Origin: Candidatus Altiarchaeota archaeon
Lineage (GTDB): Archaea > Altiarchaeota > Altiarchaeia > IMC4 > QMZM01
DNA length: 64,000 nucleotides
Direction of reading: 5' to 3'
NCBI GenBank assembly: GCA_016931955.1
Contig: JAFGDV010000012.1
Location: 1-64,000 of the forward strand
Shown here: in pieces, positions 11,489 to 28,404 of the stretch
How the letters are laid out: every line of letters starts with the position of its first letter
How positions within the stretch are numbered: position 1 is the first letter of the stretch
Program-made: the position numbers and the translations under genes
The notes under the pieces: generated by a model
The model's database searches: none
What the model saw: the letters and a program-made list of their open reading frames with translations, nothing else
What the model was told of the DNA's origin: nothing

Positions 11489-11533
11489 TTATGTTTGTTT
11501 TTTCCTTCTATTTCTCGGAGCCAGTCGTCTATT
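11489..11533 (-). repeat. displaced copy F of the 3' end of gene 15514..17604
   Basis: TTTTTTCCTTCTATTTCTCGGAGCCAGTCGTCTATT; the minus strand reads IDDWLREIEGK. Confidence 0.85.
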
Positions 11534-11645
11534 AATTTGATGGTTTATAAGGTGACTTGAGGATATCCAGAGATTGGAGGTGTCTCCGTAAACCGTTTTC
11601 TTTAAGCCTCAAAGATTTAAGCAGCAAATACTGAGTATTAATGAG

Positions 11646-11888
11646 ATGAAAAAGAGGATTATGGGTAAAATATTCGAATTTCCGGTGATAATAGAGAGGG
11701 ATGAATGCGGATATTTCGCGTCATGTCCCCTGCTGCAGGGTTGCTATACGCAGGGAGAAACTTATGAGGAGGTTCTTGAGAATTTGAAGGACGCAATGAG
11801 GCTTCATATAAGAGACCGATTGGAGGCGAAAGAGGAGATCCCTTCTGTGCAGAACATTGCATTAACAACCGTAAGGGTTAGAGCATGA
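11646..11888 (+). CDS. hicB: type II TA antitoxin HicB
   Basis: FPVIIERDE.GYFASCPLLQGCYTQGETYEE signature; ATGA overlap with hicA. Confidence 0.9.
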   Translation: MKKRIMGKIFEFPVIIERDECGYFASCPLLQGCYTQGETYEEVLENLKDAMRLHIRDRLEAKEEIPSVQNIALTTVRVRA

Positions 11889-12115
11889 CTGGAAGGCTTC
11901 CGAGGTTGGATGTTAGGCGGGTAAGCAAGGTTCTTAAAAAACTTGGTTTCACGGTGGCTAGACAATCTGGCAGCCATATGATATTCAAAAATTCTGAGGG
12001 TAAGAGGATAACTCTCCCATATCATTCAAAGAGGATACTGCATCCGAAACTTTTAAAAAGCGTTCTGAAGGATGCTGGAGTATCCATTGAAGAATTCAAA
12101 AGGTTGCTTGGATAG
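11885..12115 (+). CDS. hicA: type II TA toxin HicA (mRNA interferase)
   Basis: LKKLGF...RQSGSHMIF...TLPYH signature. Confidence 0.9.
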   Translation: MTGRLPRLDVRRVSKVLKKLGFTVARQSGSHMIFKNSEGKRITLPYHSKRILHPKLLKSVLKDAGVSIEEFKRLLG

Positions 12116-12125
12116 ACTTCATCCC

Positions 12126-12614
12126 TTATTTTTTCCCTTCTATTGTTATTTTTTTCTCTAATTTGTTTCTTATTTCGTTTATTTTGTTTTCATCGAGTTT
12201 TTGTAGTGTGTATTTGCATTTAACGAGGAATTCTGGTGCTTTTTCAGTCATTTCATTATATTGTTCGTCTGGTATGTTCCTGTTTACATAGTATTGTGCG
12301 TCTATTCTTGCCTTTAGTGAATCCTTTAGGAAATCGATTTCTTCTTTTTTGAAGAACTCTTTGAGGTATTGTTTTGCGAATTCCACTGTGCATGAGTGTA
12401 TTTCGCATTTTATCCCTATTCTGACGAGAATTGAGTACAATGAAAAGTACATTGTATAGTAGGCGGTTGCTATCTCCCAGTCTTTTATTACATTGATTCT
12501 CATTGATTGGAGTGATTCTTCTGCTTTTTTTGTATATGCTTCTGCAAGGTTTGGGTTTGGTTCGACTAGGCTTATCCCTTCTTTCTTTTTCAGGCACCAG
12601 TTGATTTTATCCAT
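12126..12614 (-). CDS. HEPN domain protein
   Basis: Motifs TAYYTMYF, EIHSC and R-x4-Y (RIDAQY); coupled to the upstream MNT. Confidence 0.8.
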   Translation of the reverse strand: MDKINWCLKKKEGISLVEPNPNLAEAYTKKAEESLQSMRINVIKDWEIATAYYTMYFSLYSILVRIGIKCEIHSCTVEFAKQYLKEFFKKEEIDFLKDSLKARIDAQYYVNRNIPDEQYNEMTEKAPEFLVKCKYTLQKLDENKINEIRNKLEKKITIEGKK

Positions 12615-13197
12615 TTTTCAGGACTGTTCTTATGAATTCTTCTGTGTTTGAGAAGACTATGTGGTTGTCTAGTACCTCTTTTATGAGGATGTCATTCCAC
12701 ATGTTTTCTTGGAATATTTTTTTGGGATAGTTTTTGATGCTTGTTTCGATCCCGTACAGGCTGGATGCTTTTTTGGTTTCTTCTTTGTCGTAGTCTCCTG
12801 CAATGAATATGTCTAGGTCTGAGTTTTTTTCTTCGATGCCTTTTGCGTAGCTTCCGAATATTATGCCTATTCCATTGATTGAGGGGGTTATCTTTGTTAG
12901 TAGTTCTCTGATCATTGGTTTGTCTTTGAGGAAGGTTATTTTTTTGTATTGTTCGGTGAATATTAGATAGTCTTTTGCGGTTTCTGTTTTCTTTATTTTG
13001 TATGTTTTTATTTTACCTTTTGTTTTTGATTCTAGGACTGTTTTTTTTTCTAAGTCTCCCAGGATTAGTTGGGCTGTTCTTGGGCTTATCTCCAGGAGCT
13101 TCTGTACTTCTCTTATGTAGTGGTCTTTGTTGAAGCCTTTCGTGTATAAAGCCAATACTTGCAGGTGGTTTTCGGTTATGTTTATTTTTTTATACAT
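12607..13197 (-). CDS. wHTH-fused minimal nucleotidyltransferase (MNT)
   Basis: N-terminal HTH (HYIREVQKLLEISPRTAQ) and the GS-x10-DxD motif FGSYAKG...SDLDIF. Confidence 0.85.
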   Translation of the reverse strand: MYKKINITENHLQVLALYTKGFNKDHYIREVQKLLEISPRTAQLILGDLEKKTVLESKTKGKIKTYKIKKTETAKDYLIFTEQYKKITFLKDKPMIRELLTKITPSINGIGIIFGSYAKGIEEKNSDLDIFIAGDYDKEETKKASSLYGIETSIKNYPKKIFQENMWNDILIKEVLDNHIVFSNTEEFIRTVLKNG

Positions 13198-13198
13198 A

Positions 13199-13228
13199 TG
13201 TATTATTTAGAATACAATCGTATTTAAA
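13199..13228 (-). promoter_or_regulatory. putative operator and TATA box of the MNT-HEPN operon
   Basis: Inverted repeat TGTATT-N6-AATACA (13199-13216) immediately upstream of the start codon, next to a minus-strand TTTAAATA box. Confidence 0.45.
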
Positions 13229-13230
13229 CC

Positions 13231-13278
13231 CTAAGTTTTCTTTTTTCCTTCTATTTCTCGGAGCCAGTCGTCTATTGT
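13231..13278 (-). repeat. displaced copy D of the 3' end of gene 15514..17604
   Basis: The minus strand reads TIDDWLREIEGKKKT-stop. Confidence 0.9.
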
Positions 13279-13298
13279 TCTTTCAGAGGGTTTTATGC

Positions 13299-13643
13299 TC
13301 AGAAATCGATCTCTTTTATGGTTTGTTGTAGTAGTGGTTTGATTTTCGGCATTCTTTCTTTGATGGTTTCCCAGATAAGTTTATAGTCTACTCCAGAGTA
13401 GAAATGTATTAGTCTGTCTCTCATGCCGGCCATTTCTTTCCATGGGATTTCGGGGTGTTTTCACCGTATTTCTTCGGGGATGTGTTTTGTTGCCTCTCCT
13501 ATGATTTCTAGCTTCCTCACTACGGCGCTTGCGGTTTTGTCGTCTTCTCTGAATTTTTCGAAGTCTGATTTACCTACGAATTCTTCGATTTTTTCCACTG
13601 CCTCCAGTATGTCTTTCAAGTAGATCATATGGTCTCTTTTCAT
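13299..13643 (-). pseudogene. hepT: DUF86/HepT-like HEPN RNase toxin with an in-frame TGA
   Basis: The frame continues past TGA (13461-13463): [40 protein letters not shown]...EIDF*, 115 codons, essentially the length of the intact paralogs. The R-x4-H motif lies after the stop. Confidence 0.85.
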
Positions 13644-13933
13644 ATGGGAGTCGCCTCTTTTAATATGCTTTCCTTGAGTTCTTTTCTCAGCGCTCTTCTT
13701 GGTATGATGTCGACTTTTGTGTTTAGTTTTTCTTCGAGGAATAGTGCGAGCCCTGTCAGGTCTATGAGGTCGGCGTCTTCTTTGAAGTCTACTAGTAGGT
13801 CTATGTCGCTTTCTTTTTTGGTCTCGTTTCGGACGTAGGAGCCGAATACTTCTATCTTTTTTATCTTGTATTTCTTGTATAGTTCTGTTTTGTATTCTTT
13901 TAGGGTGTTTTTTATCTCATCAAGTGGTTTCAT
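13640..13933 (-). CDS. mntA: minimal nucleotidyltransferase antitoxin (MntA-like)
   Basis: FGSYVRNE...SDIDLLV motif; ATGA-coupled to the DUF86 gene. Confidence 0.9.
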   Translation of the reverse strand: MKPLDEIKNTLKEYKTELYKKYKIKKIEVFGSYVRNETKKESDIDLLVDFKEDADLIDLTGLALFLEEKLNTKVDIIPRRALRKELKESILKEATPI

Positions 13934-13964
13934 ATCATTATATCTTTGATTTTTTTGTATTAAA

Positions 13965-14077
13965 CCTAGGTCTTTCCTTCTATTTCTCGGAGCCAGTCGT
14001 CTATTGTCTTCTCTACTTCCGCCAGTTTGTGGTGTTCCTGCAGCGGTTTTATATCCACCAAAAAGAAATAGTTAATT
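13965..14077. repeat. displaced copy C of the 15514..17604 tail, plus a duplicated TA promoter region
   Basis: Near-identical to 14734-14852, with a small deletion after CCTAGG. Includes TTTTATATCCACCAAAAAGAAATAGTTAATT. Confidence 0.9.
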
Positions 14078-14091
14078 TGGTAGGTGTTTTG

Positions 14092-14394
14092 ATGGAAAAA
14101 ATCAAAGTAAACGATAGGTTGGTGAATTTTAAGAGGAAGGTTATTCCCGTCCTTAAGCGAAACGGTGTGGTGAGGGCGGGGGTGTTCGGCTCATTTGCTC
14201 GTGGGGAGGCTAAGAAGGGTAGTGACGTTGATATCCTGATTGAAATAAGGGGTAGGAAGAGCCTTTTTGATCTTGCGAGGTTGGAGATTGAGTTAGAGAA
14301 AAGGGTGGGACAGAAGGTGGATGTGGTTGAATATTCAACAGTTCATCCTCTGCTGAAGGATAGGATCTTGAAAGAGGAAGTGCAGGTACTATGA
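14092..14394 (+). CDS. mntA: minimal nucleotidyltransferase antitoxin (MntA-like)
   Basis: FGSFARGE...SDVDILIE motif. Start at ATG 14092 (MEKIK); the upstream extension in the ORF track runs through repeat DNA. Confidence 0.9.
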   Translation: MEKIKVNDRLVNFKRKVIPVLKRNGVVRAGVFGSFARGEAKKGSDVDILIEIRGRKSLFDLARLEIELEKRVGQKVDVVEYSTVHPLLKDRILKEEVQVL

Positions 14395-14738
14395 AAAAGG
14401 ATGTGCGTGTGTTTCTGTTGGATATCCTGGAGTGTATTGAGAAGATTGAGGAATACACTGGTGACATAAGCAAGGAGGAATTTCTTGGGGAGACATGGAT
14501 TCAGGATGCAGTGCTCAGACGAGTGGAGGTCATCGGTGAAGCTGCGAAGAATATACCTGATAGTTTCAAGAAGACTCATCCGGGTTTGCCTTGGAGTGAG
14601 ATGGCTAGGACGAGGGATAGGCTTATCCATGGATATTTTGGTGTTAATCTTGAGCGTGTTTGGGTTATTGTGAAGGATGATCTCCCTGACTTGAAGAAGA
14701 AGATCAAGAAGATCCAAGAGGATCTGGAAACATCCTAG
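14391..14738 (+). CDS. hepT: DUF86/HepT-like HEPN RNase toxin
   Basis: Motifs QDAVLRRVEVIGEA and R-x4-H (RDRLIHGYFG). Confidence 0.9.
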   Translation: MKKDVRVFLLDILECIEKIEEYTGDISKEEFLGETWIQDAVLRRVEVIGEAAKNIPDSFKKTHPGLPWSEMARTRDRLIHGYFGVNLERVWVIVKDDLPDLKKKIKKIQEDLETS

Positions 14739-14852
14739 GTCTTCTTTTTTCCGTCTATTTCTCGGAGCCAGTCGTCTATTGTCTTCTCTACTTCCGCCAG
14801 TTTGTGGTGTTCCTGCGGCGGTTTTATATCCACCAAAAAGAAATAGTTAATT
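14677..14852. repeat. displaced copy B: direct repeat of the hepT end plus the 15514..17604 tail
   Basis: 14677-14816 matches 15456-15595 (140 bp, 4 mismatches by eye); the right part also matches copy C. Confidence 0.92.
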
Positions 14853-14864
14853 GTAGATGTTGTG

Positions 14865-15173
14865 ATGGAAAAGGTTGTGCTACGTGATAAGCGTTTAATG
14901 GATTTGGGGAGGAGGATAGTTCCTGTACTTAAACGTAACAAGGTTGTGCGGGCAGGGATTTTTGGTTCGTTCGCGAGGGGGGACTTCAAGAGGGGTAGTG
15001 ATATCGATATCTTGATCGAGGTGAAGGCGAAGAAATTTAGTTTATTTGATTTGGTTGGGCTTGAATTGGAATTGAAGAAGGTGTTGGGGAGAGATGTGGA
15101 TTTGTTGACGTATAATGGGATTAATCCTCTCTTGAGGGATAGGATCTTGGGGGAGGAGGTAAGGATAATATGA
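14865..15173 (+). CDS. mntA: minimal nucleotidyltransferase antitoxin (MntA-like)
   Basis: FGSFARGD...SDIDILIE motif; paralog of 14092..14394. Confidence 0.9.
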   Translation: MEKVVLRDKRLMDLGRRIVPVLKRNKVVRAGIFGSFARGDFKRGSDIDILIEVKAKKFSLFDLVGLELELKKVLGRDVDLLTYNGINPLLRDRILGEEVRII

Positions 15174-15517
15174 AAAAAGAGCCGTTGATTTTTATTAAGC
15201 ACATATTGGGGAGTATTGAGAACATAGAATCTTTTTCTCGGGGACTTTCTAAGAGTGAATTTTCGGGGGATAGATTGAGGCAGAGTGCTGTTATTAGGGA
15301 AATAGAGATAATCGGGGAAGCTGTGAAGAATTTGCCCACAGAATTCACGGTCAAGTATCCTAGTGTGGAGTGGAGCAGGATTGCCGGTACCCGCGATAAA
15401 GTAATCCATCACTATTTTGGAGTTGATGCGGACGTTATCTGGGATATTATAGAATATGATCTCCCTGACTTGAAGGAGAAGATCAAGAAGATCCAAGAGG
15501 ATCTGGAAACATCCTAG
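15170..15517 (+). CDS. hepT: DUF86/HepT-like HEPN RNase toxin
   Basis: Motifs QSAVIREIEIIGEA and RDKVIHHYFG. Its stop shares a CTAG with the convergent gene. Confidence 0.9.
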   Translation: MKKEPLIFIKHILGSIENIESFSRGLSKSEFSGDRLRQSAVIREIEIIGEAVKNLPTEFTVKYPSVEWSRIAGTRDKVIHHYFGVDADVIWDIIEYDLPDLKEKIKKIQEDLETS

Positions 15518-17604
15518 GTCTTCTTTTTTCCGTCTATTTCCTTGAGCCAGTCGTCTATTGTCTTCTCTACTTCCGCCAGTTTGTGGTGTTCCTGCAGTAG
15601 TTTTTCTTTTTTCTGGTGTATTTGTTCCCACCATTTTTCGACTTCTTCTGGGGTCTTTGGCATCCGGTGGTGTTCTTCGGTGGTCTTCTTTATTATCAAT
15701 GTGGCGGCTATTATGCTTACTACCAGCATTACTATTAGCACCTCTGTTATCGGCAGCTCTCCCTCTTTTTTAGGTGTCAATGGTTCTGGGTCTATTAGGT
15801 CTTCTATTCCGTCTCCGTCTGTGTCTTTGTTGTATGGGTTCGTGCCTTTCTGGCTTTCTTCGTAATCTGTTAGCCCGTCTTTGTCTGAGTCTATGAACAT
15901 GGTCTCTGGTTGCAGTGGGTGGGGGTCTATTCCGTCTATCAGCTTGTCTCCGTCTGTGTCGTTTTTGTATGGGTCTGTTCCCATCATCGTCTCATTGTAG
16001 TTGCTGAGTCCGTCCTTGTCTGAGTCTATGAACAGGTCCTTGTGCAGTAACGGGTATTTGTCTAGTGAGTCTATCATCCCGTCGCCGTCTGTGTCGTTGT
16101 TGTATGGGTCTGTGCCTATCCTTAATTCATCATAGTCTAGTATTCCGTCTCCGTCGGCATCGTATATGAGGTCTTCTTTTATGAGTGGGTGCGGGTCGTA
16201 CATGTCTGTTATCCCGTCGCCGTCTGTGTCTACGTTATAGGGGTTTGTCCCGCTCATTGTCTCGTTGTAGTCGCTTAGTCCGTCTCCGTCTGAGTCCGTG
16301 TAGAGGTCTTCTGTTTCCAGTGGGTGGGGGTCCATTGAATCCGGTAATCCATCCCCGTCGGTGTCTTTGTTTGTCTTGTTCGTCCCCATCACCTTCTCCA
16401 CGTAGTCTATGACTCCGTCCTCGTCTGTGTCGTTTGTGTACCCGAATAGGTACATCTTGTTGTCGTTGGCTCCTATCAGTAGTTCGGGTATTTTGTCTCC
16501 GTTCAGGTCCACTATCTTTGGTGTTGACTGTATTGAGGTGTTCAGCCAGTGGCTCCATTTCCTGGTCAGGTTCCAATCCAGCACATATATTGTCCCCTTT
16601 GTCGTGGCCACTATTATATCTTTTCTGCCGTCTAGGTCTATGTCTTCTACTTGTGGTTTCGTTTTTATGGCGCCGTCTAGTGTTGTCTTCTTTTTGAGTT
16701 TTCCGTTGTAGTCTAGCATGTACAGGTTTTTGTCTGTTGACCCGAATATTACCTCTGTTGTTCCATTGTTGTCTATGTTGTTTATCGTCGGAGCCGCCTC
16801 TATCCCTCCCTTCGTTGTGTAGTTCCATCTCCTGTATACTTCGTAGACGTCGTATTCTTTTCCAGTCGTCTTTCTATGCCCTAGTGAATGCATTATTCCG
16901 TCCCCTGATCCTGCGAATATTTCTCTCCCGTTTGTTTCCACCGCTAGTATGTCTCCTCCTGTCTGGTAGCTCCATATTGACAGCATCGGGTATTTTATTA
17001 TGTATACTTTGTTGTCGTCTGATCCTAGTATTATCTCTGGTTCTTTGTCTGCGTCTATGTCTGTTATCTTTGGCGTTGACTGTATTTTGTCCATGGTCTT
17101 GTATTCCCACACGTGTTTTCCTTTTAGGTCTAGTAGGTATATTCTCGCGTCTCCTGACGTCAACGCTATCAGTTGTTTTCCTTTGAATTCGCCTGTCGCC
17201 GCTGCTCCCATTATTTTCCCCTTGGTCGTGTAGTTCCACATATGTGTTCCATTACTGTTTATCGCGTACACTATTCCATCCCATGCTCCTACTATCACGT
17301 CCTTTAGTGTGTCGTTGTTTAGGTCTATCAGTAATGGAGTTGAGGATATGCTTCCCCCTGTCTTGTAGCTCCATTCTTCTCTTCCTAGCGCGTCTACCAC
17401 ATATATTTTTCCGTCTCGGCTTCCGTATATTATCTCCGTTATTGTGTCGTTGTCTATGTCTGCTGTTGCCGGCGCCCCTGTATTCCAGTTTTCTGCTGTG
17501 TGCGTCCATATTATCCCGAATCCCTCTAAACTGAGGTTTTCCTGTGCTGTCGCCTGCATCGTCAGTATCAGCAGCATTATCGTGATTGCTTTTTTTGTCT
17601 GCAT
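15514..17604 (-). CDS. secreted membrane-anchored protein: FG-GAP/PQQ-like beta-propeller plus thrombospondin type 3-like Ca-binding repeats
   Basis: Signal peptide; repeated D(I/L)(D/N).D...EII.GS.D blades; about five GTNP.N.DTDGDG..D..DP.PL repeats; C-terminal TM helix and cytoplasmic tail. Confidence 0.88.
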   Translation of the reverse strand: MQTKKAITIMLLILTMQATAQENLSLEGFGIIWTHTAENWNTGAPATADIDNDTITEIIYGSRDGKIYVVDALGREEWSYKTGGSISSTPLLIDLNNDTLKDVIVGAWDGIVYAINSNGTHMWNYTTKGKIMGAAATGEFKGKQLIALTSGDARIYLLDLKGKHVWEYKTMDKIQSTPKITDIDADKEPEIILGSDDNKVYIIKYPMLSIWSYQTGGDILAVETNGREIFAGSGDGIMHSLGHRKTTGKEYDVYEVYRRWNYTTKGGIEAAPTINNIDNNGTTEVIFGSTDKNLYMLDYNGKLKKKTTLDGAIKTKPQVEDIDLDGRKDIIVATTKGTIYVLDWNLTRKWSHWLNTSIQSTPKIVDLNGDKIPELLIGANDNKMYLFGYTNDTDEDGVIDYVEKVMGTNKTNKDTDGDGLPDSMDPHPLETEDLYTDSDGDGLSDYNETMSGTNPYNVDTDGDGITDMYDPHPLIKEDLIYDADGDGILDYDELRIGTDPYNNDTDGDGMIDSLDKYPLLHKDLFIDSDKDGLSNYNETMMGTDPYKNDTDGDKLIDGIDPHPLQPETMFIDSDKDGLTDYEESQKGTNPYNKDTDGDGIEDLIDPEPLTPKKEGELPITEVLIVMLVVSIIAATLIIKKTTEEHHRMPKTPEEVEKWWEQIHQKKEKLLQEHHKLAEVEKTIDDWLKEIDGKKKT

Positions 17605-17973: not shown

Positions 17974-18103
17974 TTCATCATGTCTATTTCCCTTCGTCTT
18001 CTTTGTTGTTGGCTGCAGTTGTAGGTGATCTTGGCGGGAGTGTGTTTTAGAGTTTCTGTAGGGTGTTTTTTGTTTTGTCTATTAGTTCTTCTATGTTGTC
18101 TGC
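17974..18103. repeat. composite displaced fragment: PEF-CTERM tail remnant plus the 3' end of abiEii
   Basis: 18013-18103 matches 18974-19064 (91 bp, 3 mismatches); 18004-18027 matches 24918-24941 at 23/24; 17974-17992 is identical to 22805-22823. Confidence 0.88.
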
Positions 18104-18244
18104 AGCTGTTATGTATTGTTGTTCTTTGTATAGCGTTTTGTGGTGTCTCTGTTCTCTGCTGGGTTTTAGGAGGCGAACAATATTGTGTTGTAGGGTGTGG
18201 GGGACTATAGTTGGGGGGTGGTGTCTGTGAACTCTTTTGAGGGG

Positions 18245-18493
18245 TTATTTGTAGATGTTTTTTCTGTGCCCTATCTTTAGGACTAGGATTAGGAGTTTGT
18301 CTTTTTCTATGTCCATTAGGATTCGGTGGTCTCCGACTCTTAGTTTGTAGCCGGGGTCTCCCACTAGTTTGGTGACGTGGGCTTCGGGTCGTATTCTGAT
18401 TCTTTCTATTGCCGAGATTATTCTTTCCTGCTGTTCTCGTCCGAGTTTTTTGTATTGTTTTTTGGCTGTGTCTGAGAAGAAGACGTCGTACAT
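18245..18493 (-). CDS. relE: type II TA toxin, RelE/ParE family
   Basis: YDVFFSDTAKKQYKKL...YKLRVGDHRIL...KIGHRKNIY signature. Confidence 0.9.
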   Translation of the reverse strand: MYDVFFSDTAKKQYKKLGREQQERIISAIERIRIRPEAHVTKLVGDPGYKLRVGDHRILMDIEKDKLLILVLKIGHRKNIYK

Positions 18494-18709
18494 TTATTTC
18501 ATCTCTGCTTTTATTTGGTTGAGTGTGTGGATTTTCCCTGCTTTTATTTCGGCGCGGGCTTCTTCTAGTTCTTTTTTTGTTTCGGCGTTCAGTTCTGTTG
18601 TGTCTTCGATCAGGTTTTGGATTACTTCTTCGTAGGTTTCTCTGTCGGAGAGTTTTCTTTTGTTTAGTGTTTCCTGTAGTTTGTTGCTTATCTGGATCGT
18701 AGTTGCCAT
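18494..18709 (-). CDS. cognate antitoxin (ribbon-helix-helix-like)
   Basis: MATTIQIS...ETYEEVI..LIE; abuts relE; imperfect inverted repeat ACTATAGTATGTTATAGT upstream. Confidence 0.85.
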   Translation of the reverse strand: MATTIQISNKLQETLNKRKLSDRETYEEVIQNLIEDTTELNAETKKELEEARAEIKAGKIHTLNQIKAEMK

Positions 18710-18876
18710 AGTAAACTATAGTATGTTATAGTATATAAATACCCCCATGCATCCATCTGTATCGAGCTGACTGTATGTGTTTATTCTCCAAAGGAACCCG
18801 CATATTTCAACGTTTTTTGTTTGTTGGGGGTAGCATAGGATCTGTTGGCTGTCTAAGGAAGAAAACTCTTTCTCTT

Positions 18877-18990
18877 TTATCTGCGTCTTGTTATCAGGTA
18901 CGCTACTGTCGGCGTCGTCAGCAGTATTAGTATTGTTGTCTCTGTGGTGTTGTATTCTGGCACCTGTTTTTGTCTGCAGCTGTAGGTGAT
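18877..18990 (-). pseudogene. orphan PEF-CTERM sorting-signal fragment with no gene body
   Basis: The minus strand reads ITYSCRQKQVPEYNTTETTILILLTTPTVAYLITRRR*, compared with TYTCSQQQVPEFNTIGIILIILTTPGIAYLITRKR* at the end of 24833..25654. Confidence 0.85.
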
Positions 18991-19007
18991 TGTGGCGGGA
19001 GTGTGTT

Positions 19008-19844
19008 TTAGAGTTTCTGTAGGGTGTTTTTTGTTTTGTCTATTAGTTCTTCTATGTTGTCTGCCATGTCTCTGCTTACTCTGTAGGAGGATATGAAGCC
19101 TTTTATTCTGTCTTCTCTCAGCTTTAGTAGGTTGGTTTGGCAGGAAGTGATCACTTCCTCTGTTTTGTGGCTGCTTCCTCTCCTCCGAAGGTCTCTTCTA
19201 ATCTCTGTGGGTACCTGGCTGTAATCGATCCTCTTTTTCGGATAGTTTATGAGTGCTATCACGTCGAATAGGTCTTTGTAGTGGGCTCGGCCTACGTGGA
19301 CCTTATCTGATCTGGCAGAGATCACAATCTTGTTGGCGAGTAGCATCTCTATTGGAGTTATCTTCTGTTTGAATGCGTAGTCGTCTAATATGCCTGGGAG
19401 CGTGTTGAAGTCTGTTTCATCTGGTTTTCTTAGGACTGTCTTTGTGTTGACTTGTACTTTGATTAGGTGGGCGTTGATTTTTTCGCCTTCGAATCGTGTC
19501 TCTGTTTTGTATATTGTCGGAGCTATTCTGTAGTAGGTCAGGGCTCCTGTGAATCTGTTGTATTTGCCTCCTCTTAGCCCTAGTTCCTCCATCTCTGTTC
19601 GTGTTTCTTCTATTGTTTTCTCTTCTTCGAGGTCGTAGTCTAAGTCCATTGATATCCTCCTGTTTGTTTCTTTTATGAACTGTTGGACTGCTGTGCCTCC
19701 TTTTAAGACGATTTTTTGTCTGCGGAGGAGGTTTGCTGTGTCCATGAGCCATATCAGGAACTCGGTTTGTAGTCGGGGGTGGCCTGTTTTCTCTGATATT
19801 CTTTTTATGTTTTCTTCGTTCAGCAGCTGTTTTAGTTCATGCAT
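19008..19844 (-). CDS. abiEii: type IV TA toxin, AbiEii nucleotidyltransferase
   Basis: Motifs LKGGTAV, RISMDLDY, ANKI and YKDLFDV. Confidence 0.88.
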   Translation of the reverse strand: MHELKQLLNEENIKRISEKTGHPRLQTEFLIWLMDTANLLRRQKIVLKGGTAVQQFIKETNRRISMDLDYDLEEEKTIEETRTEMEELGLRGGKYNRFTGALTYYRIAPTIYKTETRFEGEKINAHLIKVQVNTKTVLRKPDETDFNTLPGILDDYAFKQKITPIEMLLANKIVISARSDKVHVGRAHYKDLFDVIALINYPKKRIDYSQVPTEIRRDLRRRGSSHKTEEVITSCQTNLLKLREDRIKGFISSYRVSRDMADNIEELIDKTKNTLQKL

Positions 19845-20550
19845 TTATTCCTCCTTCTATGAATTTTCGTTCTTCTTCTGTCGGTTTTTTTTGTGTTGTC
19901 TTTACCTTGTAGCCTTTCTCTGATAGGACTGTGAGTATCTTTTTCAGGTATTCTAGTGTTCCTGTTTCTTGGGCTGCTTCTGTGAGTTGCTTCTGGTTGA
20001 ATCCTCTTTCTATGTAGTCGCATATGGCTGGTATGGCGTAGAACTGTATTATTTCTGGCTCCATTAGTAGGGTTTCTGTTATCGCTGTTTCGGGTGTGGC
20101 TATGTTGGCTTCTCTGTCTTCGAAGACTGTTCTTCTGTAGTTTTCTTTTTTTATCTGCCTCTTTATTGTTTTTATCTCGGCTTCCATTGTTTTGTTGTAG
20201 GCTTTTATCTGTTTATCGTCTTCTACTGTGAGGTAGTATTCTCTGCTGGATGCGAGTCCGTAGTATGATAGTGCTGATGGTCCTGTGATATAGTATCCTT
20301 GGTTGTATGTTTTTTCCATGAAGCCTATGATGTCTTTTCCGTAGGTGTTTTTTATCAGGTATTCTTCTGGTTTGTTTAGTTTGTATCTTCCTTTGGCTGT
20401 TTTTGTTATCATTCCTTTTTTCTGCATTCTGGTGGCGACTACTTTTGCGTTGTTTTCGGTTGTATTCAGTATTCTGCTTATGTCTTTTGTTGTGAATTCT
20501 TTTTCCCCGAGTCTCAGGTATAGTAGGGTGTAGCGTTCGGTGATTTTCAT
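19837..20550 (-). CDS. abiEi: type IV TA antitoxin, AbiEi-like (wHTH)
   Basis: N-terminal wHTH (..KGMITKTAKGRY), YITGPSALSYYGL and IATPETAI; overlaps the abiEii start. Confidence 0.85.
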   Translation of the reverse strand: MKITERYTLLYLRLGEKEFTTKDISRILNTTENNAKVVATRMQKKGMITKTAKGRYKLNKPEEYLIKNTYGKDIIGFMEKTYNQGYYITGPSALSYYGLASSREYYLTVEDDKQIKAYNKTMEAEIKTIKRQIKKENYRRTVFEDREANIATPETAITETLLMEPEIIQFYAIPAICDYIERGFNQKQLTEAAQETGTLEYLKKILTVLSEKGYKVKTTQKKPTEEERKFIEGGINA

Positions 20551-20581
20551 TTTTTGTAACTTGTAACATAATTACTGTTTT

Positions 20582-20604
20582 TGTAACTTAAATATCAAGT
20601 TACA
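20582..20604. promoter_or_regulatory. putative AbiEi operator
   Basis: 23-bp inverted repeat TGTAACTT-N7-AAGTTACA overlapping a TTAAATA box upstream of abiEi, with additional TGTAAC half-sites at 20555-20567. Confidence 0.65.
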
Positions 20605-20641
20605 GAAATCGTAACTATTCCCTGATTTTGATTTACGCGGG

Positions 20642-20715
20642 TCTTTTTCTCTTCCTCAGGTACGCTATTCCCGGCGTCGTCTTTGTTGTTTGTCTCTGTG
20701 GTGTTGTATTCTGGC
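20642..20715 (-). repeat. decayed PEF-CTERM tail copy
   Basis: The minus strand reads PEYNTTET, then after a frameshift TTPGIAYLRKRKR; it shares long stretches with 18895-18961. Confidence 0.8.
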
Positions 20716-20792
20716 TCTTTATTCGTCAGTGTGGATGCTCCGTGTTGTTGTCTTGCACTGTTTTTTTTGGAGGGAATCAGTTGTGCTTGTTT

Positions 20793-21161
20793 TTAGAGAA
20801 GCTTTTTAATGTCCTCAATAAGCTTTTCGGCTGCTGTTATAGCTTCTTCTGCATCGGCTTTTGAGATGTCTGATATGATTCCATAGTCTGCTTTCTCTCT
20901 TTCTTCTTGTGTTGTTGCAAAATCCCTGAAGGTGTCTTGGCTTAGTTCTCCTGTTTTAACGTATTCTTCGGCGATTTTGGGTATAACTCCTCTATGTGTT
21001 TTTGGATAGATGTCTTTTGTAGATAGTAGAGCTCTTGCTGCGAAGAACATTGAGTAGTATGCCCTGCTTAAAGCATCAGAGTAGTGTTTGTCTTCCAGTA
21101 AGTCTTTTGCTGCTTCGAGTTTTTCTCTTGCTTTTTCCATTAACATGTCTTTTTCATCCAA
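20793..21161 (-). CDS. HEPN domain protein
   Basis: Motifs ALSRAYYSMF, PKTHRGV and REKADY. Confidence 0.9.
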   Translation of the reverse strand: MDEKDMLMEKAREKLEAAKDLLEDKHYSDALSRAYYSMFFAARALLSTKDIYPKTHRGVIPKIAEEYVKTGELSQDTFRDFATTQEEREKADYGIISDISKADAEEAITAAEKLIEDIKKLL

Positions 21162-21465
21162 TTAGAACACCATTTTTTTCTATTTCGGAGATGAAGTGTG
21201 TTTTTCTGATTTTTTTGTAGTCTTTTTGTGTGATGATTTTTGCTGAGATGTAGACTGATTTTTCTAGGAGGGTTTTGACTACGTCTTCCATTATTTTTTT
21301 CTTTATTTTTCTTTTGCTGCTTTCTGAGATTAGCATCATGTCTATGTCTGACTTTTCCTTGTCTTTTCCGCTTGCTACGGAGCCGTAGAGTATGATTTTT
21401 TTTATTTCTGGGTTTTTTTTCTTGACTGTGTATGCGAAATCTTCTGCTATTTTTTTTCTGTTCAT
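21154..21465 (-). CDS. minimal nucleotidyltransferase (MNT)
   Basis: ILYGSVASG...SDIDMM motif; overlaps the HEPN start. Confidence 0.88.
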   Translation of the reverse strand: MNRKKIAEDFAYTVKKKNPEIKKIILYGSVASGKDKEKSDIDMMLISESSKRKIKKKIMEDVVKTLLEKSVYISAKIITQKDYKKIRKTHFISEIEKNGVLIG

Positions 21466-21509
21466 TTTTTTGGTAAAGGTATTTTGTTTTCCAGATTTAA
21501 AATGGTTTT

Positions 21510-21635
21510 CCGGCGTCGTCTTTGTTGTTTGTCTGCATGTGTGGGTGGTTGTTACTGTTTTTGTAACTTAAATATACAGAAATCGTAACTATCCCCTGAT
21601 TTTCATCAAATATGCTGTCCCAGGAGTCGTTTTTA
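21510..21635. repeat. composite repeat: PEF-tail fragment, duplicated abiE promoter, second PEF-tail fragment
   Basis: 21510-21534 is identical to 20671-20695; 21552-21603 matches 20572-20629 with a 6-bp deletion; about 21592-21633 on the minus strand reads KTTPGTAYLMKIRG. Confidence 0.8.
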
Positions 21636-21689
21636 TTCTTGGATGGGGGTCAGTTCAGGGATTGTTGGTGAGGTGGGTGGGGTGGATAA

Positions 21690-22298
21690 TTATTTGGCCA
21701 GTTTCATGTCTTTGTCGCCTAGGATTGTCTGGCCTTCGTGGTTGCTCCAGAGTGCCATGATGGAAGCCAGTGCTCCCGGCTCTGTTTCGTTTTTCATGAG
21801 TTTTAGAATGTTTTTCCTCACCATATTTTTGGACTTCTCTGAGGCCTGTTGTGCGCTGTTGCCTTTGAGTAGGGAAACAACGACTAGATTGGAGGGTTCA
21901 AGGAAGAGTTTGGCTGTCTCGTCTTTCAACGGCGTCGCTGATCGTCTCTCATCTATCCAGAAACTGAAGGGGGTATTGTAGCCTATGAAGCATCCGCCTT
22001 TTAGGGTGCATGCTTTTCCCAGGGAGGCTGCTGCGTAGCAGGCTCGGGCGTAGACTATCTTTTTGCTTAGGATGTTATGGTTTACGTCTTCTTCCACCAA
22101 AACTTCTTCTATGCCTCTGATTTTGTCGCCGTATATGTGTTTTTCATCTCCGTGGGCGTTGAAGAAGATCAGCGGCGGATTTTTCTCTGAGACTATATTT
22201 GAGAAATTTTTTTGTGTGAGGCGTGGTCTCTCCAGGTCTAAGACTTTGGTGTTCTTTTTTTTGGCTGACTTAATGACTTTGCTGGCGTCATGTTTCTG
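21690..22298 (-). pseudogene. clan CD (caspase/gingipain C25-like) protease with a disrupted or frameshifted 5' end
   Basis: The open frame 22298..21690 contains IFFNAHG (His codon 22152-22154), IVYARAC (Cys codon 22038-22040), FIGY and a terminal ILGD. No in-frame ATG precedes the His motif. Confidence 0.6.
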
Positions 22299-22527
22299 CT
22301 AGTGTCTTGGAGAATTCTCCGCTGGCTACTGCGCGGATGAATTTGAGTTGCATGTCGACGAAGTTTCTGCCGACTTCGTCTTCTGCTTGTATGTGTTTTT
22401 TAAGCTCTTCTTTGGTGTAGACGCCTTTCTCTCCTACTGATAGCTTGAAGTGGCTGGGTACGCTGGTTTCTAGGCGCCATAGTACTAGTTCTTTGACTTC
22501 TTTGTCGAGTTTCTTTTTGTCTTTCAT
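22288..22527 (-). CDS. small conserved-looking hypothetical protein (protease module gene 2)
   Basis: 79-aa ORF, ATGA-coupled on both sides. Confidence 0.75.
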   Translation of the reverse strand: MKDKKKLDKEVKELVLWRLETSVPSHFKLSVGEKGVYTKEELKKHIQAEDEVGRNFVDMQLKFIRAVASGEFSKTLAET

Positions 22528-22712
22528 ATTATCTTCATTTTCGCCAACTTGTCGATAATCTGCTTACCAAGCTCAGAATCGTTTTTGATTTCGATCATGG
22601 CTGTATTCCATGTGTAGGGTTTGTTTTTTATGACGACTATTATGTCTTTTCCGCGGATGGCTTCTGGGACGTTGGCATATATCCTCATAAATTTGGCTTT
22701 TTTGTCTGCCAT
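22524..22712 (-). CDS. small conserved-looking hypothetical protein (protease module gene 1)
   Basis: 62-aa ORF, ATGA overlap with the next gene, AT-rich box upstream. Confidence 0.75.
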   Translation of the reverse strand: MADKKAKFMRIYANVPEAIRGKDIIVVIKNKPYTWNTAMIEIKNDSELGKQIIDKLAKMKII

Positions 22713-22804
22713 AAGTAACCATTAGCATTGGGGGGATTATTAAGCGTAACGCAGACTTGTTGGGCTTCGCTTATTGTCTAACCCGTGGAAAGCCTTGTCC
22801 CCAC

Positions 22805-22847
22805 TTCATCATGTCTATTTCCCGTCGTCGTATTGTTTTGGTTGTAG
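22805..22847. repeat. short decayed spacer repeat, probably related to the PEF tail
   Basis: TTCATCATGTCTATTTCCC is identical to 17974-17992 and is followed by GTCGTC as in the other tail copies. Confidence 0.6.
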
Positions 22848-23313
22848 TATGTTTTCCTGTATTTCTCATATTGTATTACATGAATTTTTAAACTTTCGTG
22901 TATTATTTATCTCAATAATTTTTCCTTTCCTCGATAAATTAATAGAGTTAAATTTTGTGTCATATGTTTTGGTGGGCTTACCTAAATTTTTAGTATTTAT
23001 ATGCGTAGTTCCCTTGTTTTAGGTGGGGTGTGCATAATGGAACTTAGGATTGAGATGAGCCATACTGAGCAGACCGCATGCTTCTCGCTCCTATTGAGTT
23101 GGAGACTCCGAGCAGGTTAAAGACTTTTGGGGCTTATCTTGGAATCTAGGATATGACTTTATTGGCTGAGGCGATAACTCTTAAGATCCCTTATTTTATC
23201 TCTTTGTATGTCGGTGGTGGGGCTCAGAGGAAGTTGATTATTGTCAGGCGGCTGGATGATGTCTTTTTTTTTTGTTAGGCTGCTGCTGTTGGTGTATCCT
23301 TGGTGGGTTTTTT

Positions 23314-24750
23314 TCAGGCGTGTGAGAAGAATATTATGGGCATGTGTAGTATGTTTTCTTCCAGTTTTATCTGGTCTGTGTTGTAGATTATTATGCCGTG
23401 GGGGGATTTGTATCTCTTGATTGCTTTTCTTATCTGTTTGGTGTTTTTGTCGCCTGAGCCTACTTCTACTGGTATTATCTGGTTTTCTTTTTGGATTAGG
23501 AAGTCCACGCCTTCTTTTTCCGGGTCGTAGGATATTCCTGCTTTTTTTGTGCGGAATAGGGTTGATGCGACGAGGTTTTCTGCGAGGAGTCCTATCATGT
23601 CTCTGTTTTTCAGGTTGTATGTTCCGAGTTTGAATCGTATTGCTGCATTGATGGAGGGTGATAGGAAGTAGTATTTCCAGGGTTTTCTGACTATTTTGCC
23701 TGCGCTGCCGTAGGGTTTGACGCTGAATATGAGGTGTGTTTTTTCCAGGACGTCTAGTATGTTTCTTATGAGGGTTGGTGATTTCTTTAATCTTGCGGCG
23801 AGTTTGGCGTCTGATGTTCCGCCTGGTTTTTGGAGTGCTAGGAAAGTGAGTATCAGCGAGATTGTGTTTCGTGTTTCTGTTGTGAAGTTTTGTATCGTGG
23901 TTAGGTCTTTTTCTATCACTCTTTCGATCATGTCGAATGTTTTCTCGTGGACTGCGGCTTCTTCGAGGGGGATGGCGTAGGGTAGGCCGCCGTAGCATAG
24001 GTAGTTTTCCCATTCTCTCTGGGGGTCTTCGCCTGTTTTCAGGGTCTTTATCGTGATTTCGTGCTTTAGTTCGGAAGCTTTTTTTAGTGTTTTTTCGTCT
24101 GGGTTGTGGATTAATTCCATTATTGTCTCCGTTGTTTTCGGCAGGTCTATGCCGTATTTTAGGGTTATGTGTTCTGTGTAGTTCATTGGGTATATTCTTA
24201 TCTTGGTTATTCTTCTTGCGGCGTCGACGTTTAGTTCTAGGTCTAGCGCGGATGATCCTGTGTATACCGTGAATATTTTCTTTGTTTTGTCGTAGAAGAT
24301 TTTTCCTGCTGTGGACCATTCTTTGTCGTAGTGGGCTTCGTCCACGAATATGAATAATGGCTCTTTGAGGTTTACTGGTGAGGTTCTGTGGATTTTTTGT
24401 ATGTATGTGTCTATCGCATTGAATATTGTGCTGCCGACGTAGTTTTTCATTTCGTCGGCTGTGAAGTATAGTATTTTTTCTGGGTCTATTTTTTTGTCTT
24501 TTGTCAGGTGGTCGTATAGTTGTAGTAGTAGTGTTGTTTTGCCTGTTCCTCTTAGTCCGGGCATCATTATTAGTCTGTTTTCTGTGTCTTTTCCGTCTAG
24601 GTAGTTGTCTGCGTGTTGTTGTAGTCTGTTGTAGATTGTTCTGTGTTTTAGTGGTTTGTCTTCTCTTTTGATGCCGTCTTTTACGAGTTTTGGTGTTTCT
24701 GTGAGTTTGCCTATGACGTAGTTCAGTACCAAGTCGTCCATCTCATACAT
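23314..24750 (-). CDS. COG1373 AAA+ ATPase (AAA_14 + HTH + DUF4143)
   Basis: Walker A GLRGTGKT, Walker B FVDEAH, TGSSAL, GGLP, and C-terminal VDF...PVEV. Confidence 0.9.
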   Translation of the reverse strand: MYEMDDLVLNYVIGKLTETPKLVKDGIKREDKPLKHRTIYNRLQQHADNYLDGKDTENRLIMMPGLRGTGKTTLLLQLYDHLTKDKKIDPEKILYFTADEMKNYVGSTIFNAIDTYIQKIHRTSPVNLKEPLFIFVDEAHYDKEWSTAGKIFYDKTKKIFTVYTGSSALDLELNVDAARRITKIRIYPMNYTEHITLKYGIDLPKTTETIMELIHNPDEKTLKKASELKHEITIKTLKTGEDPQREWENYLCYGGLPYAIPLEEAAVHEKTFDMIERVIEKDLTTIQNFTTETRNTISLILTFLALQKPGGTSDAKLAARLKKSPTLIRNILDVLEKTHLIFSVKPYGSAGKIVRKPWKYYFLSPSINAAIRFKLGTYNLKNRDMIGLLAENLVASTLFRTKKAGISYDPEKEGVDFLIQKENQIIPVEVGSGDKNTKQIRKAIKRYKSPHGIIIYNTDQIKLEENILHMPIIFFSHA

Positions 24751-24832
24751 TATTATGTACAAACCTATATAAATACTTATACATTATAGAATATAAATCA
24801 GGGGATTTGGATCCCCCCTAGCCAGATATTCT

Positions 24833-25654
24833 TCACCTTTTTCTTGTTATCAGGTAGGCTATTCCGGGTGTCGTCAATATTATCAGTATTATTCCTATGG
24901 TGTTGAATTCCGGCACCTGTTGTTGGCTGCAGGTGTAGGTGCATCCTGTCGTGCCTTCATCGTCGTAGTTGTCTGTGGTGTCGCATCTGTTGTTGTCTCC
25001 TGTTGTCACGTCTAGGCTGACTATGTCTTCGAAGCTTCCTCCTTCTTGGTTGTTGTTGCAGAATGTGTTCTCGTTCAGTACGTTGTTGAGCACATGTACT
25101 ATGTATACTCCAATGCGTTGGTTGTTGTTTGCTGTGTTACCTGTTAGTGTGTTGCCGTGTGTGCCTATGTATATTCCGTGTAGTGTGTTTTCGTTTGCCG
25201 TGTTGTTTATGAGTTGGTTGTTGTCTCCTCCTGTTCCTCTTATGTCTATTCCTTCTCGGAATCCGGTTATTTTGCAGTTTCTTATGGTGTTTCCTGTTTT
25301 TCCGTCTAGTATTATGCCGAAGTCGTTGCCGGTGTTGTCTCCGTCTATTGTGTTTCCTTGGCAGTCGAATATTTTGTTGTTGAAGCCTGCTGGGCTGTTG
25401 ATGCATGTTCCTACGTAGTTGTTTACTGTTATTGTTCCTACGTAGTTTACTTGGCTGTTGCAGTTTATATTGTCGTTTAGGGCTGCTGTGCAGTCGATGC
25501 AGGCGTCTGTGTTGCTTCCTCCATTTGTTGTTGTGCCGTCTCCGCAGTTGCATACTCCGCATCCTATTTCTGTGTAGGCGTTTACGGTGGCCATCATTAT
25601 CAACAGCATTGTTATTATTGTCGTTATCTTTTCTTTGTTTTTGTTTGTTTTCAT
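24833..25654 (-). CDS. PEF-CTERM surface protein with parallel beta-helix (NosD-like) repeats
   Basis: Signal peptide; IFDCQGNTIDG and N.L.NNTAN.N...GI repeats; C-terminal VPEF + TM + RKR. Start placed at MKTNK. Confidence 0.85.
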   Translation of the reverse strand: MKTNKNKEKITTIITMLLIMMATVNAYTEIGCGVCNCGDGTTTNGGSNTDACIDCTAALNDNINCNSQVNYVGTITVNNYVGTCINSPAGFNNKIFDCQGNTIDGDNTGNDFGIILDGKTGNTIRNCKITGFREGIDIRGTGGDNNQLINNTANENTLHGIYIGTHGNTLTGNTANNNQRIGVYIVHVLNNVLNENTFCNNNQEGGSFEDIVSLDVTTGDNNRCDTTDNYDDEGTTGCTYTCSQQQVPEFNTIGIILIILTTPGIAYLITRKR

Positions 25655-27555: not shown

Positions 27556-28404
27556 ATGGATCAATACAAAATCTCGAAGGCGTGGTTTGCGGTGGTTATG
27601 CTTTGCCTTATTGGTTCCCTCGTTTTCCTAGAGGTTGGCATGTCATATTTCCCATTTGTCTGGGTTGCTGTGGGCGTCATCGTCCTCTATAAGGCTCGGT
27701 ATCAGCCTTCTTTAGGTCTATCTATACCTTTGAAGATTGTCTGTGTGTTGTTTGGACTTAGCGCTTGTGTTCTTGCTTTTTCCATGGATTCTTTTCGTAT
27801 GCCTGAGGTCTCTCTTCTCCTCTCTGGTCTCAGTATTATTTTCTTCGCTGTCTTGGGTTTCCGAGGCCTCATAATTCCTACAGGAGTACCTATTGTTGTT
27901 TCTTTGGCTTCTCGTTTCATCCGACCATTGATGGTTTCTTTAATCGAGCCTTTGGTTAAACTTACTTTCCTTGTTGTTTCTTTTGTTTTTGGTTTGTTTG
28001 TTGAGGTCCAAACGAGGGATGTGAATAATGTTTTGTCTTTTAAGTCGGTGAACGGTGTTTTCATGAATATCGGCATTGATAATTCTTGTTCTGGTATTTG
28101 GTCTCTTGGGGCGTTCGTCATTGCCATGTTCTTGGTTCTCATAGTCTTTCCTTATATTTTCAGGGAGTGGATCTTGTTTTTCTCCATCGGCTTTGCAGTC
28201 ACCTATTTCCTCAACATTGTGAGGATTGTATTTGTCTGTTTTGTGGGTTATTATACTGGCTCTTATGAGCAGGTCATGTTTGCTCACACCCATATTGGTT
28301 GGATCTTGTTCACAATTTGGATGATCGTTTTCTGGTATTTCTTCATATCGGAATTCCTTAAAGATAGAAAGTCGCGAGGGATTGAAATTGAAACAACTAA
28401 CTGA
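27556..28404 (+). CDS. artC: archaeosortase/exosortase family transpeptidase (ArtC-like)
   Basis: Multi-TM protein with a Cys-Arg-His triad (IDNSCSGI, LNIVRI, FAHTHIGW); adjacent to PEF-CTERM genes and an MraY-like gene. Confidence 0.85.
   Translation: MDQYKISKAWFAVVMLCLIGSLVFLEVGMSYFPFVWVAVGVIVLYKARYQPSLGLSIPLKIVCVLFGLSACVLAFSMDSFRMPEVSLLLSGLSIIFFAVLGFRGLIIPTGVPIVVSLASRFIRPLMVSLIEPLVKLTFLVVSFVFGLFVEVQTRDVNNVLSFKSVNGVFMNIGIDNSCSGIWSLGAFVIAMFLVLIVFPYIFREWILFFSIGFAVTYFLNIVRIVFVCFVGYYTGSYEQVMFAHTHIGWILFTIWMIVFWYFFISEFLKDRKSRGIEIETTN

Follow-up and report, generated by a model that had tools for sequence, protein, structure and literature searches.

Toxin-antitoxin cassettes between duplicated gene ends in a Candidatus Altiarchaeota genome: a possible stack of recombination scars behind a PEF-CTERM-like gene

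Introduction

Orphan toxin-immunity modules lie 3' of rhs and cdiA, and each pair is preceded by a fragment of the conserved region of the main gene, which enables recombination. The fragment is located upstream of the variable toxic tip, and recombination swaps the end of the main gene. Here we describe another arrangement in which gene fragments separate small operons. It is found in a window of 64,000 nucleotides (nt), the whole stretch of DNA that was analyzed, which is the first 64 kb of contig C23 (JAFGDV010000012.1) of a Candidatus Altiarchaeota archaeon. The source is a metagenome-assembled genome (MAG) of 1.55 Mb in 46 contigs that is 92% complete (GCA_016931955.1). Downstream of a surface-protein gene with a PEF-CTERM-like tail, five gene units are separated by remnants of that tail (array 2). 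A similar series, array 1, lies close by.

Several described systems come near to this arrangement. The lpl cluster of Staphylococcus aureus diversifies via unequal crossing-over and via excision of circles and their re-integration at conserved segments (Tsuru and Kobayashi 2008, PMC2568036). Integrase-bearing elements of archaea occupy the 3' ends of tRNA and protein genes (Makarova et al. 2014, PMC4158269), and integrons and clusters of attC sites lacking integron integrases (CALINs), archaeal ones included, hold small cassettes (Ghaly et al. 2022, PMC9668308). Toxin-antitoxin (TA) operons are exceptionally mobile, and MNT-HEPN pairs occur within otherwise syntenic loci (Makarova et al. 2009, PMC2701414). 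The available part of the latter text uses neither 'direct repeat' nor 'flanked', and in the literature searched we came upon no account of TA cassettes that lie between duplicated ends of neighboring genes. Our statements on these four papers refer to the available parts of their texts.

Results and Discussion

Remnants of the neighboring gene tail in array 2

Array 2 consists of five units, K1 to K5, downstream of the PEF-like gene and on the same strand, with remnants of the gene tail between them. We read it as a stack of recombination scars, and hold belief and doubt in this reading to be evenly balanced. Open reading frames (ORFs) were called by a simple longest-ORF rule. The gene, its tail, the units and the tail remnants (stubs S1 to S5) are the following:

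24833..25654, minus strand: resident beta-helix surface protein gene (Pfam Beta_helix/NosD; 273 aa) with a PEF-CTERM-like tail
24833-24946: S0, the tail of this gene (last ~110 nt) and source of the array-2 stubs
23314..24762, minus strand: K1, AAA_14/DUF4143 ATPase, a candidate defence gene (PADLOC PDC-S01)
22805-22860, minus strand: stub S1, heavily decayed, within a 600-nt non-coding stretch (22713-23313)
22524-22712, 22288-22527 and 21690-22100, minus strand: K2, three ORFs of 62, 79 and 136 aa, no named family
21507..21633, minus strand: composite stub S2, made up of S2a (21592-21633), a copy of a 57-nt repeat (21552-21606) and S2b (21507-21552)
21154-21465 (MNT) and 20793-21161 (HEPN), minus strand: K3, MNT-HEPN pair (Pfam/PADLOC families)
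20643-20715, minus strand: stub S3, then the other copy of the 57-nt repeat (20572-20632)
19837-20550 (AbiEi) and 19008-19844 (AbiEii), minus strand: K4, AbiEi/AbiEii (Pfam/PADLOC families)
18877-18990, minus strand: stub S4, overlapping copy 1 of a 100-nt repeat (18965-19064)
18494-18709 and 18245-18493, minus strand: K5, antitoxin-like ORF and ParE/RelE-family toxin (Pfam family)
17974-18030, minus strand: stub S5, 3' of copy 2 of the 100-nt repeat at the distal K5 boundary

Each stub was compared with 1000 shuffles and with 1000 random windows from the same strand and neighborhood. The scores of S4, S3, S5 and S2b against S0 were reached by none of the 1000 shuffles. For S2a, two of 1000 shuffles reached the score against S0 and none the score against S3. 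S1 is unlike S0 (952 of 1000 shuffles reach its score) and resembles S5 (0/1000) and S3 (4/1000); it would belong to the family only at second hand, via these two stubs. Whole-genome BLAST aligned S4 with S0 at 79.6% over 103 nt (E about 1e-17 to 1e-19) and S3 with S0 at E 4e-5. The six remnants listed in an earlier note on this DNA are therefore real and non-random: four match S0 directly, S2a matches it weakly and S1 is linked only through other remnants. Significance against shuffles thus holds for the short pieces S2b and S2a and fails for S1 when S0 is the reference. When the five stubs S1, S2b, S3, S4 and S5 were compared with 11 tails, eight from this genome and three from relatives, the best-scoring tail for S4, S3, S5 and S2b was the adjacent gene's own, S0. 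S1 had no significant match among the 11 tails.

The stubs differ in what they retain. S4 is an in-frame, near-complete orphan tail (ITYSCRQKQVPEYNTTETTILILLTTPTVAYLITRRR, followed by a stop codon). S3 starts at PEY codons, its tail start and membrane-helix core are deleted and its frame is shifted. S2 has its pieces in another order than S3: it begins with the 3' half of the tail, continues with the 57-nt repeat and closes with the tail start fused to the TTPG part. S2b, S4 and S5 share the same start position within the tail. The longest exact run common to the tail stubs is 15-24 nt, which makes assembly confusion unlikely for most of array 2; for the 100-nt repeat this run is 72 nt.

Two repeats accompany the stubs. 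The two copies of the 57-nt repeat (20572-20632 and 21552-21606) are 87% identical and lie upstream of AbiEi and of MNT. Just upstream of AbiEi the repeat contains an inverted repeat, and the MNT-side copy has a small deletion; it may be an operator or promoter that travels along with a stub. The 100-nt repeat (18004-18103 and 18965-19064, 95%) brackets K5. Its three parts are the final 57 nt of AbiEii, 18 nt of spacer and the beginning of the stub; the first 70 nt are identical in both copies, and all five differences fall within the stub part. A 24-nt tail-start fragment at 18095-18119 is joined to copy 2 of this repeat. Across the distal K5 junction (18135-18080), an exact 14-nt match to the start of S4 gives way to the AbiEii 3' region, and the two parents overlap by 8 nt. 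The junction is a microhomology chimera. An illegitimate joint at microhomology beside a homologous segment was found at this junction only.

K3, K4 and K5 are predicted, by family match, to be paired small genes of toxin and antitoxin families. The K2 ORFs, which had been taken for a protease triad, match no family in Pfam, NCBIfam or PADLOC, and that label is therefore unsupported; an Atlas look-up of the 136-aa ORF returned unnamed clusters and only a weak CHAT lead. About 450 nt 3' of the ATPase gene (22861-23313) are without an ORF, an Rfam match or a repeat elsewhere in the genome. Beyond K5, a short DUF1616 ORF and then the start of a 696-aa gene follow on the minus strand. The G+C content of the region from 17 to 25 kb is 39-44%, compared to ~47% in most contigs.

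Brackets at other genes of the genome

We scanned the genome for local direct repeats of which one copy falls on a gene 3' end, and followed up the hits with Pfam and pairwise alignment. Duplicated 3' ends of unrelated genes were found to bracket the same kinds of cassettes:

MTHFR gene: 53 nt of the 3' end duplicated (96%), around a broken HepT and MNT
Mem_trans (transporter) gene: 64 nt duplicated (80%), around AbiEi/AbiEii
DUF2341 gene: 63 nt duplicated (76%), around a MazE-type unit and a PIN fragment
V4R gene: 33 nt duplicated (94%), around HicBA and a PIN gene
108-aa gene: 56 nt duplicated (91%), around MNT-HepT

The five simple loci of the genome are C23:70.6-72.4 kb, C24:3.8-6.4 kb, C38:3.5-5.9 kb, C39:8.1-9.2 kb and C40:7.2-8.6 kb. 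Direct repeats at most 6 kb apart bracket 11 of the 19 HepT, AbiEii, HicA and PIN hits, at loci that are not all independent, and these 11 include all five HepT hits (three loci). Among all called ORFs 85 of 1671 are bracketed, and ~38 of these 85 are, by hand count, ORFs of the same arrays. Nine stub pairs are of the 3'-end type and seven of the 5'-end type, most of the latter resembling upstream regions of paralogues. The fourteen bracket cases from this genome and relatives comprise at least 13 different targets, one of which is a gene of another cassette (AbiEii), with repeats of 33-258 nt and 75-100% identity.

Three further brackets differ in form. An AbiE bracket on contig C31 (128 nt, 77%), which is contained in the count of 11, has its repeat in front of two neighboring units of two genes each; this repeat may be a leader common to both and not the stub of a gene end. 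At C37:25573-25735 and C4:8931-9072 a gene's final 37-41 nt, together with a few more bases, form a repeat (58 nt, 100%; 41 nt, 93%) around inserts of only 47 and 60 nt with hairpin-forming sequence.

Array 1

Array 1 is located in the same window, a few kilobases from array 2, and is bounded by the end of a different gene:

11494..15604, minus strand: array 1, four cassettes bounded by five 3'-end copies of the 696-aa gene
15513-15604, 14734-14825, 13973-14050, 13230-13278 and 11494-11533, minus strand: the five 3'-end copies (sequence repeat)

The cassettes are MNT-HepT (twice), MNT with a broken HepT, and HEPN-MNT with HicBA. The flanks of units A and B are 93-100% identical over stretches of ~110 and 150 nt on the two sides, including the last 17 HepT codons, and their interiors are only ~60% identical (MNT 56%, HepT 53% at the amino acid level). 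For this reason they are not a recent tandem duplication. The mosaic reflects either recombination or conversion at the boundaries, or the capture of different cassettes between like flanks. The boundary unit at 14677-14872 is a composite of ~200 nt: a HepT 3' end, a stub of the 696-aa gene and an MNT upstream region. Exact runs of 54-72 nt occur among the array-1 boundary repeats and the 100-nt repeat of array 2.

An internal stop, TGA in one case and TAA in the other, interrupts two of the genome's five HepT genes (13323-13610, minus strand; C23:71584-71874, minus strand), and their MNT partners look intact. This would be toxin-first decay of cassettes that still lie between stubs. A gene for a 296-aa protein with a PES-type sorting tail (10563-11453, plus strand) ends 41 nt before the outermost array-1 stub, so that array 1 is flanked by two surface-protein genes.

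Brackets in related genomes

We sampled 29 HepT loci from 29 other Altiarchaeota genomes, each with ~1.5 kb of flank, and used 29 MTHFR loci of similar size as a control. Direct repeats (30-232 nt, 71-97% as first listed) bracket eight of the 29 HepT loci and none of the 29 controls, a contrast that is overstated because kin genomes are not independent. The repeats correspond to the 3' ends of epimerase, polysaccharide-lyase-like, tRNA-ligase and NTP-transferase genes; of the remaining ones, one is a 5' end plus 200 nt upstream, one is intergenic and one is ambiguous. Locus L107 has a second repeat pair, the 3' end of the Nre gene around an RHH-PIN cassette. At the MTHFR locus, the gene further downstream is another one in the best relative (G008, 64% identity).

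The orthologous locus is present on metagenome contig L034, where the PEF gene is 65% identical. Its stop codon is directly followed by a stub of 88 nt (77%) copied from the 3' end of a PIG-L gene, and a PIN cassette lies between this stub and the PIG-L gene. An MNT-HepT pair, GT4, DUF1616 and archaeosortase genes follow further on. The earlier note had argued for a general mechanism rather than one specific att sequence. This part of it stands: array 1 is real, and the same brackets are found at unrelated genes here and in other Altiarchaeota.

A model for the arrays

We propose that single TA or defence operons would have been inserted one by one at or beside the PEF-like gene's stop codon, and afterwards into stubs that already existed. 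Each insertion would duplicate tens to a few hundred bases of the local target, giving the structure H-X-H, in which H is the gene end and X the cassette. With the gene tail as the first target and its dead copies as the next, the cassettes would come to be separated by whole, truncated and permuted pieces of the sorting signal. Later insertions into a stub would be tolerated and would fragment it, because the stub is neutral DNA beside an intact gene. Neither a dedicated att site nor an integrase in cis would be needed.

Two routes could lead to such insertions. Homology-facilitated illegitimate recombination reportedly combines one homologous anchor with one microhomology joint, needs no recombinase or att site, and is said to operate in natural transformation of bacteria. 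DNA of related cells might enter in this way, and the distal K5 junction appears to fit it, with one homologous anchor and one illegitimate joint that would have landed upstream of the anchor's end. In the other route, cassette circles would re-integrate through a single crossover. The array would afterwards be reshuffled by unequal exchange between its stubs. The H-X-H structure is unstable, because recombination between the two copies of H deletes X; neutral inserts would be lost and addictive TA operons kept, and the surviving X would mostly be TA operons. We give an equal chance of being right or wrong to this scheme of repeated integrase-free insertion, assisted by homology or microhomology, in which the local target is duplicated and TA addiction keeps unstable structures in place. 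The PEF tail itself has no special role in it.

Several points weigh against the proposed scheme, to which the kinship of the sampled relatives belongs. Stub decay does not rise with distance from the gene: S1, the nearest stub, is the most decayed, and simple serial insertion at the gene end is therefore insufficient. Microhomology is demonstrable at one junction only. In seven of the fourteen bracket cases the duplication stops 1-9 nt short of the final base of the resident gene's stop codon, and the inserted unit is nearly always one operon. These regularities could reflect a preference for a site or a unit, and a random process would need the help of selection to produce them. No empty site, donor or excised circle was seen among genomes of which the closest are distant (archaeosortase 64-65%, PEF 63-65%, MTHFR 64% identity). 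Finally, a recombinase could act in trans, since the MAG is 92% complete and mobile genes often stay unbinned.

Alternative explanations

Site-specific integration by such a trans-acting recombinase is an unlikely explanation, though one that has to be taken seriously. The cassettes would be miniature integrative elements or TA-stabilized remnants of larger ones, which integrated serially and whose attP copies the 3' end of the target, as it does in archaeal and bacterial elements directed at the 3' ends of tRNA or protein genes. Direct repeats of a gene 3' end that regenerate the gene are indeed the classic footprint of this process, the position of half of the repeat ends within 9 nt of a stop codon fits it, and the responsible gene could be missing from the incomplete MAG. 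A single match to the tyrosine recombinase family PF00589 was found in the genome, on contig C38 and none on C23. It is a 403-aa protein encoded near a 951-aa ORF and several small ORFs (C38:51245-57410). This region is a candidate integrated element; no direct repeats were found to flank it.

The same explanation requires at least 13 different target sequences, one of them the AbiEii gene of another cassette, and no constant att core with fixed boundaries was found in the fourteen cases. The repeats vary in length and identity, and stub boundaries differ even inside array 2, where a microhomology chimera forms one of the junctions. For the ORFs between stubs (arrays 1 and 2, five other loci of the genome and seven of relatives) Pfam returned no fragment of an integrase, transposase or replication gene.

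Known classes of mobile elements were searched for as well. Ten DNA folds of stubs from arrays 1 and 2, on both strands and with 200 shuffles each, gave z-scores of -1.5 to +0.5 and thus no attC-like folding, as judged by this proxy for an attC covariance model. No Rfam match was obtained in 10400-26000 at E <= 0.1. The inserts lack terminal inverted repeats: for only one of the 14 was the observed score reached by at most 3 of 300 shuffles. Profile searches of the 92% complete genome found no resolvase, IS110, TnpB, reverse transcriptase or Cas1; the Y2 profile had no match either, but it matched in none of the control genomes, which makes this one negative uninformative. An integron or CALIN was rejected on the grounds of folding and the lack of a nearby recombinase; a missing IntI alone does not exclude a CALIN, because CALINs lack IntI by definition. 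A transposon, insertion sequence or casposon was rejected as well, as terminal inverted repeats are lacking, the duplications are long and variable, and no transposase families or Cas1 were found. Retroposition and Cas1-type integration fall with the lack of reverse transcriptase and Cas1 genes in the genome.

It is quite unlikely that an undescribed route moves single TA or defence operons as cassettes and inserts them at or beside stop codons with target duplications of ~30-260 nt. A trans-acting enzyme or a cassette-linked activity could drive it, and the system would resemble an integron without attC or IntI, with every gene end as a landing site, in Altiarchaeota and perhaps in other prokaryotes. 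If true, this would supply a physical mechanism for the long-noted mobility of TA operons.

The earlier note had assigned the decisive role to the tail itself: the conserved PEF-CTERM tail of a multigene family would act as portable homology that moves cassettes among the PEF genes of the genome, and orphan tails might come from different paralogues. The genome has seven PE[FS]-tailed genes with a long ORF, one of them near a contig start, and two PEP-tailed genes. Three of the seven have TA- or defence-type genes immediately 3' of them, namely the array-2 gene, C23:11376 (HicBA) and C11:2816 (an AAA_14 ATPase pair). The others are followed by a gene for OMP decarboxylase, by one for a YdjM-like protein, by small ORFs and then a GalT-like gene, and by a GT4 gene. 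Tail-derived stubs were found 3' of the array-2 gene only, one of the seven, and none 3' of the orthologous PEF gene in two relatives (L015, L034). These two alone carry PEF-type tails by pattern, the loci L016-L033 and L035-L050 being beta-helix matches only. The expected association of TA modules with PEF-type genes is therefore seen at three genes as far as the modules are concerned, and does not extend to the tail stubs.

When the tail and all array-2 intergenic regions were used as BLAST queries against the whole genome, no orphan tail DNA appeared at other loci; tail-like DNA elsewhere occurs only within one intact gene (C38:24248-24348). Four of the five stubs are closest to the adjacent gene and none to another paralogue, and non-PEF genes show the same architecture. 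Thus, the portable-tail model is largely refuted, and its derivation of the orphans from different paralogues is not supported. What speaks for it is that the tails of neighboring paralogues are kept alike (see below) and that TA- or defence-like genes follow the orthologous PEF locus here and in L034, and a Schlafen/AlbA_2 gene in G004. We consider it very unlikely.

There is likewise only a slim chance that the stubs are leftovers of tandem PEF-tailed paralogues whose bodies were deleted or replaced as cassettes accumulated between them. Tandem PEF- or PEP-tailed genes do exist in relatives and on contig C21, and S4 is almost complete and in frame. Upstream of the stubs, however, no beta-helix coding remnant is found, and S4 starts 18 nt after the AbiEii stop codon. 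The start position shared by S2b, S4 and S5 also argues against leftovers, as does the pattern at single-copy housekeeping genes, where a paralogue array is implausible.

A partial assembly artefact, in which alternative cassettes of different strains with the same flanking repeat were concatenated, is extremely improbable: the genome is metagenome-assembled, the long exact runs in the repeats of both arrays could have invited such joins and the single sequencing run that contains the sequence is possibly the source run itself, but the array-2 tail stubs have far shorter exact matches, their copies differ in length and sequence, and independent assemblies of other Altiarchaeota show the same brackets.

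Genomic setting of the resident gene

The product of the PEF-like gene ends in TYTCSQQQVPEFNTIGIILIILTTPGIAYLITRKR, followed by the stop codon. This tail is tripartite, with a PEF motif, a hydrophobic helix and an RKR C-terminus, and an archaeosortase-family gene is found 2.7 kb away. The PEF-CTERM model TIGR03024 scores 14.2 bits (E 0.038) on the last 49 residues, below its cut-off of 23, which is why the tail is named PEF-CTERM-like; two other tails from the genome score 15.6 and 13.0 bits. Two further genes belong to this setting:

27556..28404, plus strand: archaeosortase-family gene (TIGR04178 54 bits, cut-off 23; ArtC model 25.3 bits, cut-off 100)
25884-26477: second substrate-like gene with a PES tail, by tail pattern

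The closest named relative found for the local archaeosortase is from Candidatus Altiarchaeota (64% identity), and orthologs of the PEF-like gene are present in G004 and L034 (63-65%). In G004 (L015:99-1295) a gene for an IS91-family transposase (Y2_Tnp with zinc-binding domain) precedes the orthologous PEF gene, and the Schlafen/AlbA_2 gene follows it.

A search for archaeosortase synteny, with alignment, returned one Altiarchaeota contig and five Methanomicrobiales loci. On this contig (L122, 6.6 kb, from a Candidatus Altiarchaeota MAG) a small PEF-tailed gene lies between 108-nt direct repeats (2-107 and 699-806, 82%). An MNT-HepT pair is located between this gene and a PES gene, GT4 and archaeosortase genes.

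Adjacent tails can be far more alike than expected from the differing gene bodies. On L034, the tails of two tandem PEF genes (310-411 and 1338-1439) are 98% identical over 102 nt, and two tandem PEP-tailed genes on C21 (22656-22758, 23429-23532) share ~104 nt of tail at 92%. Such likeness suggests conversion, or that a newly inserted gene took over an existing tail copy.

Comparison with known systems

The recurrent H-X-H footprint, at many loci here and in eight other Altiarchaeota genomes, offers a testable clue to how TA operons enter chromosomes without a recombinase of their own, and suggests why addictive TA modules persist inside unstable duplications. For annotation it would follow that orphan sorting-signal tails and short gene-end ORFs in such islands are scars, and should not be annotated as genes or att sites.

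In contrast to the rhs and cdiA modules, the fragment is here the very 3' end of the gene, the cassettes are independent operons and the main gene is no toxin gene. The conserved segments of the lpl cluster resemble the boundary units of array 1; as described there, its repeats stay within one paralogous family, whereas the cassettes of the present arrays are unrelated and are bounded by dead ends of a neighboring gene (PMC2568036).

Integrons and CALINs likewise have small, mostly single-operon cassettes that are repeat-bounded and TA-rich, and their integrase is often off-contig. In our arrays, the boundaries are copies of gene ends without attC-like hairpin potential, no IntI was found, and each array uses the sequence of its own neighbor (PMC9668308). 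The integrase-bearing elements of archaea likewise form gene-end direct repeats, regenerate the gene and can be stacked. They differ in that no integrase or fragment of one was found here, the inserts are single operons of 0.7-2 kb at many unrelated targets, the repeats vary in length and boundaries, and a microhomology chimera forms one joint (PMC4158269).

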